DNA from: Naegleria gruberi
Taxonomy: Eukaryota
NCBI GenBank assembly: GCA_000004985.1
Contig: GG738944.1
Reading direction: 5' to 3' (one strand)
DNA length: 39,119 bases
Numbering within the stretch: position 1 is the first letter of the stretch; every line of letters starts with the position of its first letter. This document shows, one piece after another, positions 30,301-32,845 of the stretch. The position numbers and the translations under genes are program-made. The notes beneath the pieces are model-generated. The model had not been told where the DNA came from and did not search any database. It saw only the letters and a list, made by a program, of their open reading frames with translations.

Positions 30301-32630
30301 CAAATCGCAGATGATAAACAAAAAGCATCGAATGTGGATATGATTGCAGAGAAAGATATCAATTTGAATGCAGTTACTGCTCGTGTTCACCATTCAGGTT
30401 CATCCTATTCATGGTTTGGTCTAAACTCATCTTCAAGAAGTGGTTACAACACTGCAGGTAATTTTGCTGTAGTACAAGCTTCTGATAATATCAATATTCG
30501 TTCAAAATCTGGAAAGATTGAAGGACAAGGTGTAATTCTCGATGCAAAGAATATTTCTGTTCGGGCTAAAAAAGGAATAGATCTTAAACCATATGAAATT
30601 GAGACATATGAACACATTCGTGAAAGAGGTTTCACCGTTGGCTTGGGAAATGCACCAAGTTTGATAAATAATAGCAAGCAAGTATTTTCCTCTGTTTCCT
30701 CAATGGGTAAGGGTGACCCTGGTGCAACTGGTTTTATAAGTGATGCAGTTGGAGCAGGACTCGGTTTATATAATATGGGTGTTGGTCTAGCTCAACTCTC
30801 ACTCTGTAATTTTGACATGTTGGTTGATGAAGCTTTGAAATGTATCAGTCCAAGTATTGGTTTTTATGATAATGAGCAAACATTTTATCAAAAACAACAA
30901 GTATTAGGAAGTATAACATGTAACAACTTGGAAGTTACAGTTGATGATGATGATGGAAAAGCATCTATTGCTTCTAACATACAAGTTAGTAATAGAACAG
31001 TAATCAATGCCACTAATGTTGAATTTAATAATGCACAACATGATACTAGAACAACAAGCAGATCAACAACATTTGGTGTTCAATTAAATATTGGTTCATT
31101 GTTAACTGGAGGTACAGGTGTTCCTATTACAGTTTCAGGTTCTCACAATGAATCAAAGGGAAGTACAAAAAATAATCAAGCAGCCAATATAAACTTGGGA
31201 GATACTCACTCTGTAAGAAATTCTACAAAGATTCATAATAAGGGAAATTCAATCCATATGAATAGCACATCTGGTGGAGATGTAAAGATCATTGATGAAG
31301 ATATGCAAAACCAACAAGAATCAACATCATCAGGTTTTAATTTTTCTGTGACAGGAACACTCAGCTCTATTTCATCTGCCTCAGTTGGAGCTCACTATGA
31401 AGAACATGATCATAAAGTTACAACTCAAGAAGGAAGAGCAAAAACAACAATTATTGACAAAAAAAATCATGTTGAGCAAGAAAAAATTGAAAAACAAGAT
31501 TATCATCATGACTTTGGAATTGGTTTCCAATATTCTCATTCGTTTGAAGATAGTACAAGTCCAGAAATCAATTTACCTCTCAAAGTTTATGGTCAATTTG
31601 GAGATATGAAATTTAGAATAGAATTGCCTCCTCTAGATATGTGTGAAAGATTCCAAAAAGGAGCTAATATAATCACAAATGCTGTTAATTATAATTTTGA
31701 TAGAGATGCTCCAAACAAGATATTCAAATTTGAAAATAAGCAAGATGAAAAAAAGGCAGAAACTGATCTGAGGAAAATGCTAAAAGAAGGAACAAGTTAT
31801 GAAGAATCCCTCTTGCGAGTCCAACAAAAATATCAAGTTTATACATATGAGCAAGCTGAGAAAAGAAATAGGGAAGAAGGAAATATGGAGAAAGAAACCA
31901 AAGTCCTAATTAAGTTAATCAACAATGCCATAGAAGAATTGGAAAACACTCCCGAAAAAGATGAAAAAGAAAAAGAAGGACCTAAGGAGATCTCAGGAGA
32001 CGATTTAGATGAGAAAGAAAAACCTAACCTACCAGAAATTTTAACAAAACTGTTTAAAGATATTGGAATAGGTGTTATCAGTGAAAATCAAGAACTTATC
32101 AAAGATATTTCTAAAAAAGTTGGAGGGTCCGTGTTTACAGCTATAATGAGGAAAATGCCAACTTCTTTAAAATCTAGCATCTTAGGTATAATTATGAGAA
32201 CAAAAAGTGTATTCGGAGATTTGGATATTAGTTCTGCTGACTTTGAAAATTTCCTTCCTGAAAAAACACTTATGAAAACCATTAATAACTCGAAGGAAAC
32301 AGTTATTCTTAATGAAAAGTCAAAAGCAAGTACTACTTCTTCAACTTCCAAAAAAGATTTTCCAAAATCTGCATTCATGAACGCTTTAAAGGGAGTTGCT
32401 GCTACTGTTTTAGAATATTCCAATACAGAAAACAGAAAAAGAACAGTTGAGGAGGATGTGATAAGAGCTTTTCTTTCTCAATCTGTAAATTTAGGATTAG
32501 AAATTGGTGAACTATGTGTGCATTCCTATTTAAAGGATGAACCAGTATTTAACACACTTAAAGAAAAGATCAATAGTAATAGTGTGTTTGATAACGCCAA
32601 ATTAGGTCTTTTAGTTGGTTGTGCAGCTTT
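21381..32630 (+). CDS. giant (>3,700 aa) beta-helical repeat protein with FhaB/CdiA-like (filamentous haemagglutinin-type) architecture and non-repetitive C-terminal domain; frame broken at about 24843-24880; 3' end at or near gap 32631-32718
   Basis: ATG 21381 (track start 21336 is TTG). Two long ORFs (21336-24866 frame A; 24823-32724 frame B) carry the same repeat grammar. Residues about 750-2350 form 19-residue repeats (e.g. ISVGNTMTGSLNSTAKESS/ICVENDLTGSLNFKSNATD/LKIKGDLKGSVKGESTNFS). 28.47-29.0 kb has FHA-1-like units (ESVNNTGTLTGTQLLIQAEKDINNSGGMSAKNLQLEGRTLNNFSKMTADNINIETTSVKNSGEM). 30.15-30.66 kb has KRSWSRSGFLWFSGESGYEED...HHSGSSYSWFGLNSSSRSGYNTAGNFAVVQASDNINIRSKSGKIEGQGVILDAKNISVRA...ERGFTVGLG, which from memory resembles the HSEKSGFLSSS.../SGLMGSGGLGFTIGS boundary motifs of bacterial CdiA/FhaB. 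No N-terminal signal peptide in this model. Confidence 0.8.
23580..28380 (+). repeat. in-frame tandem array of about 85 x 57-nt (19-codon) beta-helix coding repeats with higher-order (about 2.1 kb) internal duplications
   Basis: Constant 19-residue register with consensus (I/L/V)-x-(V/I)-x-x-(D/N)-(L/M)-(S/T/K)-G-x-(L/I/V)-x-S-x-S-x-x-(S/N)-x over about 1,600 residues. Blocks around 25380-25900 and 27470-27900 are clearly paralogous (GNVNGSVFAKAEKTNAINVIGKLDG... vs GNVNGEIYSKAEKENKINVIGNLNG...; SGSVESSSKDFIVKIDNNMSGD vs SGSVVSSSKDFIVKVETDMSGE). Confidence 0.85.
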
Positions 32631-32718
32631 NNNNNNNNNNNNNNNNNNNNNNNNNNNNNNNNNNNNNNNNNNNNNNNNNNNNNNNNNNNNNNNNNNNNNN
32701 NNNNNNNNNNNNNNNNNN
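32631..32718. other. assembly gap (N run, 88 nt) at 3' end of giant repeat gene
   Basis: continuous n characters. Confidence 1.
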
Positions 32719-32845
32719 AATTAATAAAATCATGTATGTCTGTCGAAGCCATCCGGGATTGTTCTAGCTCATCATCAACAAATATCAATTTCGGTCGCCA
32801 AAGATATTCAAATATCACTCCCAGAAGAAAATAATGTCACAAATA

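Follow-up and report, generated by a model that had tools for sequence, protein, structure and literature searches.

A giant FHA-type repeat protein of Naegleria gruberi and its candidate membrane-inserting C-terminal module

The scaffold analysed here, contig GG738944.1 of the Naegleria gruberi assembly GCA_000004985.1, makes up the whole window of 39,119 bp (GC content about 31% with its seven runs of N excluded). It carries on the plus strand a giant gene whose product ends in 650 amino acids (aa) encoded at 30660-32630. A sequence-only reading of this DNA had taken those 650 aa for a toxin-like effector module placed after an FHA-like repeat boundary. On balance, we lean towards a modified interpretation, in which the protein belongs to a heterolobosean family (Naegleria, Willaertia and Pharyngomonas) derived from bacterial FHA-repeat polymorphic-toxin scaffolds. 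Its C-terminal part would comprise an FHA-2-like delivery part and, after about 31.85 kb, a slot filled by a membrane-inserting glycine-zipper module that most likely permeabilises membranes.

The giant gene and its relatives

On the sequence evidence, the open reading frames (ORFs) 21336-24866 and 24823-32630, here ORF1 and ORF2, form a single gene that runs from 21.38 kb past 32.63 kb and encodes at least 3,750 aa, since ORF1 and the N-terminal part of the Willaertia magna protein P0002 are collinear (BLASTP, E = 2e-31) and the repeat register runs through both frameshifts that separate the two frames. BLASTP and translation showed that ORF1, the N-terminal third of the gene (21381-24866, plus strand), begins with a non-periodic beta-rich region and continues into the first 19-aa repeats, ending within the same repeat that ORF2 carries; it gave no Pfam match even at E ≤ 10. 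The frames are joined in a double-frameshift zone (24842-24898, plus strand), where three-frame translation placed the repeat register in frame 0, then in the third frame (ADKSTVSVIGRHSGQIETG) and then in the ORF2 frame, through two same-direction frameshifts within about 60 nucleotides (nt) and with no intron. These frameshifts are either a draft sequencing error or a genuine disabling mutation. About 90 copies of the degenerate 19-aa repeat were found at 23700-28900 (plus strand), the only interval in which BLOSUM autocorrelation peaked at lags of 19, 38 and 57, and the copies presumably form a beta-solenoid stalk, a long filament. The sequence-only reading had let the repeat region run to about 30.66 kb; we found that the periodic repeat stops near 28.9 kb. 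What follows at 28882-29600 (plus strand) is a conserved non-periodic beta block, corresponding to residues ~1301-1540 of the public N. gruberi protein P0001 and common to all homologues (phmmer domain iE = 1e-17 to 1e-22 against W. magna, Pharyngomonas kirbyi and metagenomic proteins), with no Pfam match above threshold.

P0001 is EFC36097.1 (XP_002668841.1, NAEGRDRAFT_82301), a 'predicted protein' of N. gruberi that is 100% identical to the window protein and covers part of the gene. With its start at 24982, the public model misses about 1,200 residues of the N-terminus. Its last 30 aa (DFNSTELTSETFPGIDNNSRNEKSTLSYHNK) come from 32988-33080 on the plus strand, beyond an assembly gap, by way of a modelled intron that bridges the gap; they have no supporting homologue and overlap coding-like sequence of the minus strand. 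Neither end of the public gene model is correct, its terminal intron having been invented to bridge the gap.

An exhaustive phmmer search of 1.84 billion cluster representatives returned 13 proteins at E ≤ 0.001, with a single N. gruberi representative. The eukaryotic relatives are P0002 (in one cluster with P0016, P0014 and P0015) and P0003 from W. magna, and P0004 from P. kirbyi, the last a complete ORF derived from a transcriptome. P0007 comes from an alphaproteobacterial metagenome-assembled genome and is annotated as a 'hemagglutinin repeat-containing protein'. The metagenomic relatives include P0005, which has a bacterial gene context, P0008 and P0009, which lie among bacterial genes, P0010, which stands beside four co-directional leucine-rich repeat (LRR) genes, and the pair P0006/P0017, with P0017 on a TARA Oceans scaffold. 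For P0011-P0013 the phmmer search supplied scores only. In tblastn of the 29.9-31.85 kb region against plasmids there was no match.

The W. magna family genes are intronless and lie in contigs of 100-377 kb with eukaryotic neighbours, and this species keeps several intact copies of 3,100-3,230 aa. Two of its genes are annotated as split models, P0002/P0018 (ABK040_013344/013343) and P0014/P0015 (016027/016028), and in reality every W. magna protein of the family probably has about 3,100-3,230 aa. Bacterial contamination was rejected as a source of the N. gruberi gene on the grounds of eukaryotic neighbours, matching GC content, the W. magna loci and the P. kirbyi transcript. An alternative genetic code was likewise rejected: glutamine is encoded by CAA and CAG (74 and 3 codons), and the ORF of 2,600 codons is open under the standard code.

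The FHA-2-type block and the domain that follows it

The block immediately upstream of 30.66 kb is of the FHA-2 haemagglutinin-repeat type (29929-30660, plus strand), as indicated by both Pfam and phmmer. When the whole ORF and the 656-aa C-terminus were searched against Pfam, NCBIfam and PDB sequences, nothing was returned; a match to PF13332 (Fil_haemagg_2) emerged only from an isolated scan of the 254-aa segment 29899-30660, with 28.5 bits (gathering cut-off 22) and E = 2e-6, in two stretches of that segment, the match lying at about 30433-30600. The same family is matched by the bacterial relatives P0007 and P0010, and the block reaches E = 1.7e-24 to P0007 in phmmer. The sequence ERGFTVGLGNAPSL lies at 30620-30665, and the ORF runs on for 656 codons to 32628, with no Pfam family matched 3′ of 30.66 kb even at E ≤ 10. 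The position of the PF13332 match indicates that an FHA-like element does end just before 30.66 kb, as the sequence-only reading had supposed, but the homologues show no boundary there. Single phmmer alignments with the proteins of W. magna and P. kirbyi and with P0005 and P0017 span P0001 residues ~1650 to 2245-2363, which is the window from about 29.93 to 31.7-32.07 kb, unbroken across 30.66 kb; the proposed boundary, residue 1894, falls in mid-alignment.

Downstream of that point the protein is indeed non-repetitive, as had been proposed: tblastn found no paralogue of these 656 aa, either internally or elsewhere in the window. The description of this C-terminus as highly charged holds for about 31.72-32.02 kb only (21 K+R and 28 D+E per 100 aa), whereas the first 350 aa are rich in G, N, S and T and resemble the upstream beta region in that composition. 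Alignment A1, made from six sequences over 30.57-31.85 kb, delimited in this part a domain of about 400 aa (30661-31851, plus strand) that is 22-28% identical across eukaryotic and bacterial members and belongs to no Pfam family. Its features are the Gly-rich motif TGFISDAVGAGLG, a beta-helix that bears long beta-hairpins, the motif IPLKVYGQFGDMKFRIELP and a helical cap, and the aligned members have in common the motifs TG.ISD....G, IP.K..GQFGD.K.R.E.P and LPS...F...E.AEEAD. The His/acidic patch singled out earlier is present as quoted (~31393-31550) but is conserved in no other member of A1.

AlphaFold2 (AF2) modelling on A1 gave a mean predicted local distance difference test score (pLDDT) of 62.5 and a predicted template modelling score of 0.48. 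In this model two blocks with pLDDT 84-94 are formed by long beta-hairpins stacked as a beta-helix, the helical cap has pLDDT 67-82 and confidence in the Gly-rich helical segment is low. The structural neighbours were beta-helix passenger domains and adhesins; outer-membrane barrels were also matched at very high root-mean-square deviation, which merely reflects the long hairpins. PDB profile searches with A1 and with the tail alignment A3 gave nothing useful. A comparison with toxin, nuclease, deaminase and peptidase folds had been suggested for this region; structure search returned no such fold between 30.66 and 31.85 kb (best Foldseek E = 0.76), and the beta-helix model comes close to the structural, non-catalytic outcome that the proposal itself had named as telling against a toxin. 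The FHA-2 region of the contact-dependent growth inhibition (CDI) protein CdiA is predicted by AF2 to be a beta-helix with projecting extended beta-hairpins and is required for translocation (PMC11630599). The A1 model fits that description, and we therefore read 30.66-31.85 kb, by analogy and on the strength of a predicted structure, as a continued delivery scaffold and not as a toxin. Of the 650 aa once proposed as a payload module, about 400 appear to be conserved beta scaffold, and only the last 200-260 aa, which are cut short by the gap, can be payload.

C-terminal ends of the family and the N. gruberi tail

Family members diverge C-terminal to the conserved motif IP.K..GQFGD.K.R.E.P. The P. 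kirbyi protein P0004 ends in a class-3 lipase with the motif GHSLG (Lipase_3, 24.2 bits against a cut-off of 22), and the bacterial members P0008 and P0012, which align to the FHA-2-type block only and weakly beyond it, also end in Lipase_3 (54.8 and 47.6 bits). The end of P0005 (...YDAHHII...H...H...) looks AHH/HNH nuclease-like, with matches to Col-Pyo_DNase and HNH that stay below threshold. A Stenotrophomonas RHS-repeat protein ends in a 39% identical version of this P0005 cassette, and a SMI1_KNR4/SUKH-1 gene follows directly after both cassette genes (L001 3186-7525 for P0005; L009 6871-10820 for the RHS protein). SUKH is the classical immunity family of polymorphic toxins (PMC3482391), and the P0005/RHS pair shows in textbook form how delivery scaffolds share a cassette. 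The W. magna proteins P0003 and P0016 end in a helical module with a glycine zipper. Since the ends of the relatives differ after the 400-aa domain, the payload slot of N. gruberi would start after about 31.85 kb. The earlier idea of a variable C-terminal payload therefore stands in so far as ends are swappable among relatives, but the N. gruberi tail itself is conserved with that of W. magna.

The slot opens with a KE-rich low-complexity linker (31852-32030, plus strand; K 17, E 22 and D 6 per 100 aa) that includes a 15-nt repeat at 31862-31897 detected by Tandem Repeats Finder; in homologues this place is taken by acidic or low-complexity linkers that are unrelated to it. Both the KE-rich stretch (~31860-32030) and the hydrophobic/amphipathic tail after it read as they had been quoted. 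The tail (32031-32630, plus strand) is predicted to be alpha-helical and is the sole candidate for a payload or an anchor. Over its last 100 aa (32329-32628) it shows homology to the W. magna C-terminal module, in the part that precedes the zipper (alignments A2 and A3). Against the tail of P0016 the Smith-Waterman score was 87 (z = 11.1, with 0 of 1000 shuffles as high), while the control comparisons with the tails of P0004 and P0005 were not significant; tblastn gave E = 0.004, and P0018, a split-off W. magna C-terminus, shares 30% identity with the tail across 88% of the segment. The tails of P0016 and P0003 are clearly related to each other (z = 27.9). In W. magna the zipper is a hydrophobic segment with a GxxxG ladder, the tails give sub-threshold matches to Gly-zipper_Omp (PF13488; E = 0.003-0.019), and about 55 conserved residues follow the zipper, ending in ...LKNE.(R/K)YDT...

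The ORF had been reported to run into a gap of 88 nt, and a run of 88 N is indeed present at 32631-32718; it begins exactly where the glycine zipper begins in the W. magna homologues. Judged from these homologues, 68-85 aa are missing, for which 207-258 nt including the stop would be needed, more than the nominal 88 N can hold. The W. magna C-terminal end had no match elsewhere in the window on either strand. The end coordinate 32834 given earlier for the gene could not be upheld: it is only the stop of one of three frames past a gap of nominal length, and the DNA beyond the gap reads better as part of a convergent gene on the minus strand.

Features of bacterial export systems were also sought. 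The N-terminus (MQVVNLEERNLPYF...) has no hydrophobic leader by eye, no signal-peptide predictor having been run. The two-partner secretion (TPS) domain (PF05860) was not matched by Pfam on 21381-23700 at E ≤ 10, nor was it found in the W. magna and P. kirbyi homologues. FHA-1 (PF05594) was not matched in N. gruberi, and only the distant homologue P0013 came near threshold (20.9 bits against 21.5); the VENN pretoxin domain (PF04829) and DUF637 gave no Pfam match. A VENN-like motif was rejected as a candidate cleavage site: the few matches in homologue tails are not mutually aligned, and the sole match in XP_002668841 lies in its artefactual last exon. No TpsB/CdiB partner of the POTRA/ShlB type was present among the window ORFs scanned, which are LRR, EGF/teneurin-like, NHL, DUF4116-like or unassigned, and the bacterial relatives have no TPS domain and no adjacent TpsB in the locus DNA examined. 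The sequence-only reading had found no cognate immunity gene, and in agreement with it neither the N. gruberi gene nor its W. magna homologues are followed by a small gene on the same strand. The next genes after the W. magna family genes are convergent and unrelated, and no neighbouring gene is conserved between the amoebae. An immunity gene directly downstream occurs only in the bacterial member P0005, as SUKH. The convergent 193-aa ORF downstream of the N. gruberi gene was rejected as an immunity gene, having no homologue near any relative.

Possible function and the surrounding locus

In the mechanism that we propose, the N-terminal repeats would form a long beta-solenoid filament. The FHA-2-like block and the hairpin domain would together make up a membrane-engaging delivery part, by analogy with CdiA, in which passage of the toxin through the outer membrane of the target depends on FHA-2 (PMC11630599). 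In N. gruberi and W. magna the payload slot would hold a membrane-inserting glycine-zipper helical module, and this module would permeabilise or depolarise the target membrane, the targets being bacterial prey or rival cells. We favour a membrane-permeabilising effector for the tail, again by analogy, because CDI ionophore toxins have a glycine zipper in their helical domain: the toxins of the CdiA-CT EC93 family have only that feature in common (PMC11630599). We hold this reading loosely because the tail is conserved, signal peptide, TPS domain and cleavage motif are lacking, and the gene is possibly a pseudogene.

Several observations weigh against a permeabilising effector carried by a delivery scaffold. 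The N. gruberi sequence breaks off with ...KLGLLVGCAA, in alignment with the first zipper glycine, so that the zipper is extrapolated to this species from W. magna; the available tail had no Pfam or PDB match, and its AF2 model was unusable (pLDDT 37.5). The A1 model is of moderate confidence only and comes from 6 sequences. The eukaryotic members have no signal peptide or TPS domain that would account for export. The cleavage motif [VILA][ED]N[NK] is absent from the genuine C-terminal 700 aa of N. gruberi, and neither the N. gruberi nor the W. magna loci hold an immunity candidate. With its two frameshifts, the N. gruberi copy may be a pseudogene. Finally, N. gruberi and two divergent lineages of W. 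magna have a conserved, non-polymorphic type of tail, which fits an anchor equally well. The glycine-zipper module could indeed simply anchor the filament, and the protein would then be a structural surface filament or adhesin whose C-terminal transmembrane anchor is the zipper known from W. magna, with no toxin payload. This constancy, the missing immunity gene and the hydrophobicity of the zipper segments, which suffices for a membrane span (Kyte-Doolittle 19-residue maximum 1.5-1.7), all speak for such an anchor. However, in a protein without an N-terminal signal peptide there is no obvious biogenesis route for an extracellular N-terminus, the ~55 conserved residues past the zipper are long for a classical tail anchor, and in relatives the same slot holds lipase or nuclease cassettes; we regard a purely structural filament as possible but doubtful.

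If the frameshifts are genuine, the N. gruberi copy could instead be a functionless pseudogene, the decaying relic of a horizontal transfer. Such a relic would agree with two same-direction frameshifts lying within 60 nt, with the gene being the sole N. gruberi representative found and with the absence of the C-terminal end from the scaffold. Yet about 2,600 codons are still open past the frameshifts in DNA of about 31% GC, which is unlikely without selection unless inactivation was very recent; single-base errors are plausible in a gapped draft with 7 N-runs, and W. magna keeps its several intact copies. Decay therefore seems to us quite unlikely. The original proposal in its strong form, in which the entire 650 aa make up a variable enzymatic effector or toxin and the His/acidic patch serves as active site, can draw on the position after an FHA-2-type repeat and on the lack of a Pfam match, which is common for novel toxins. 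Against this, 400 of the 650 aa are conserved among proteins with differing C-terminal ends, the His residues are not conserved, and the beta-helix/hairpin model has no enzyme-fold neighbour, which together make an enzymatic module of this extent highly improbable.

The membrane-permeabilising interpretation can be set beside known systems. Like the TpsA proteins CdiA and FhaB, the N. gruberi protein is a giant beta-helical repeat protein with an FHA-2-type block in its C-terminal half, followed by a payload slot that in relatives holds lipase or HNH-like ends, the latter with SUKH. The A1 model is likewise a beta-helix with extended hairpins, as in CdiA FHA-2 (PMC11630599). In contrast to CdiA and FhaB, the N. 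gruberi gene is eukaryotic and has no Sec signal, TPS domain, FHA-1 Pfam match, PT-VENN or DUF637, no CdiB/TpsB gene and no immunity gene; its stalk is built of a 19-aa repeat that Pfam does not recognise, and it has the extra 400-aa domain. The likeness to CDI ionophore toxins lies in a helical C-terminal module with a GxxxGxxxG ladder after an FHA-2 scaffold, seen in W. magna and extrapolated to N. gruberi, whereas sequence similarity is not detectable and the amoebae have no VENN site or nearby membrane immunity protein. Polymorphic toxin systems (Zhang, Iyer, Aravind et al. 2012, PMC3482391) similarly combine a constant repeat scaffold with alternative C-terminal ends, and the bacterial member P0005 has its cassette in common with an RHS protein, both accompanied by SUKH genes; here, unlike in those systems, a whole delivery scaffold stands in eukaryotic genomes with no adjacent immunity gene.

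Tick and mite 'dae' amidase genes, the subject of Chou et al., Nature 2015, are said to be domesticated interbacterial toxins and reportedly encode small secreted enzymes with signal peptides. The two cases are alike in that a eukaryote keeps a gene with an ancestry in bacterial antagonism, and an antibacterial role is plausible in a bacterivorous amoeba; they differ in that the N. gruberi protein is a scaffold of giant size that lacks any recognised export signal and whose activity is putative. A more far-reaching scenario is that heteroloboseans took over an entire bacterial contact-dependent toxin-delivery scaffold, with beta-solenoid stalk, membrane-crossing FHA-2-like domain and swappable payload (a lipase in Pharyngomonas, a zipper in Naegleria and Willaertia), and deploy it by TpsB-free export against prey or rivals; we consider this speculative and unlikely as a whole. 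Acquisition of individual toxin and immunity domains by Naegleria and other heteroloboseans is already recorded (PMC3482391). Compared with those single-domain transfers, the new element would be an entire scaffold in eukaryotes. A eukaryotic family that keeps an FHA-type scaffold with alternative C-termini was described neither in the literature searched nor among the passages of PMC3482391 listed, which does not disprove the existence of one. If the family is functional, a eukaryote keeps a whole filamentous delivery scaffold whose C-terminal end has been exchanged between lineages. This raises the question of how a 3,000-aa FHA-type beta-helix protein is exported without a signal peptide or TpsB partner, and of what use a predatory amoeba makes of a domain that bacteria need for toxin transfer across Gram-negative outer membranes.

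Beyond the gap, one minus-strand frame is open from the 193-aa ORF to the gap apart from 6 stops, whose clustering in three short stretches makes it likely that the convergent gene is multi-exon. This gene (32719-33751, minus strand) is probably unrelated to the giant gene and consists of the 193-aa ORF 33170-33751 and same-frame coding-like pieces up to the gap; its 3′ end looks to have been lost in the gap as well. The small neighbour had correctly been described as convergent and not co-directional. The 193-aa ORF had no Pfam or NCBIfam match and no counterpart beside the W. magna homologues, codon-usage scoring of the post-gap frames was uninformative, and Rfam had no match in the window.

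The other neighbouring ORFs (RI-type and other LRR, teneurin-like EGF, an NHL repeat fragment and a DUF4116-like protein) have the same GC content as the giant gene and are typical of eukaryotes. The divergent upstream neighbour of the giant gene (18987-20438, minus strand) has a sub-threshold DUF4116 match (22.4 bits against 24.9), and the gene adjoining W. magna P0003 (L008 18928-25566, minus strand) encodes a DUF4116 protein of 2,212 aa. NHL-repeat genes lie near the N. gruberi giant gene (37461-37769) and near W. magna P0016 (L007 4921-9624). Such DUF4116 and NHL neighbours in both species could be a remnant of synteny or could simply reflect the size of these gene families. Among the metagenomic relatives, P0008 (L003 5992-17941) and P0010 (L005 7768-14235) adjoin Sel1 and LRR repeat genes, and a second Lipase_3 fragment lies near P0008; this gene content resembles that of amoeba-associated bacteria. 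Elsewhere in the window, the NHL fragment at 37461-37769 is of the teneurin type, and a 1,396-aa ORF at 11041-15231 (plus strand) combines teneurin-like EGF repeats with a hydrophobic C-terminal segment.

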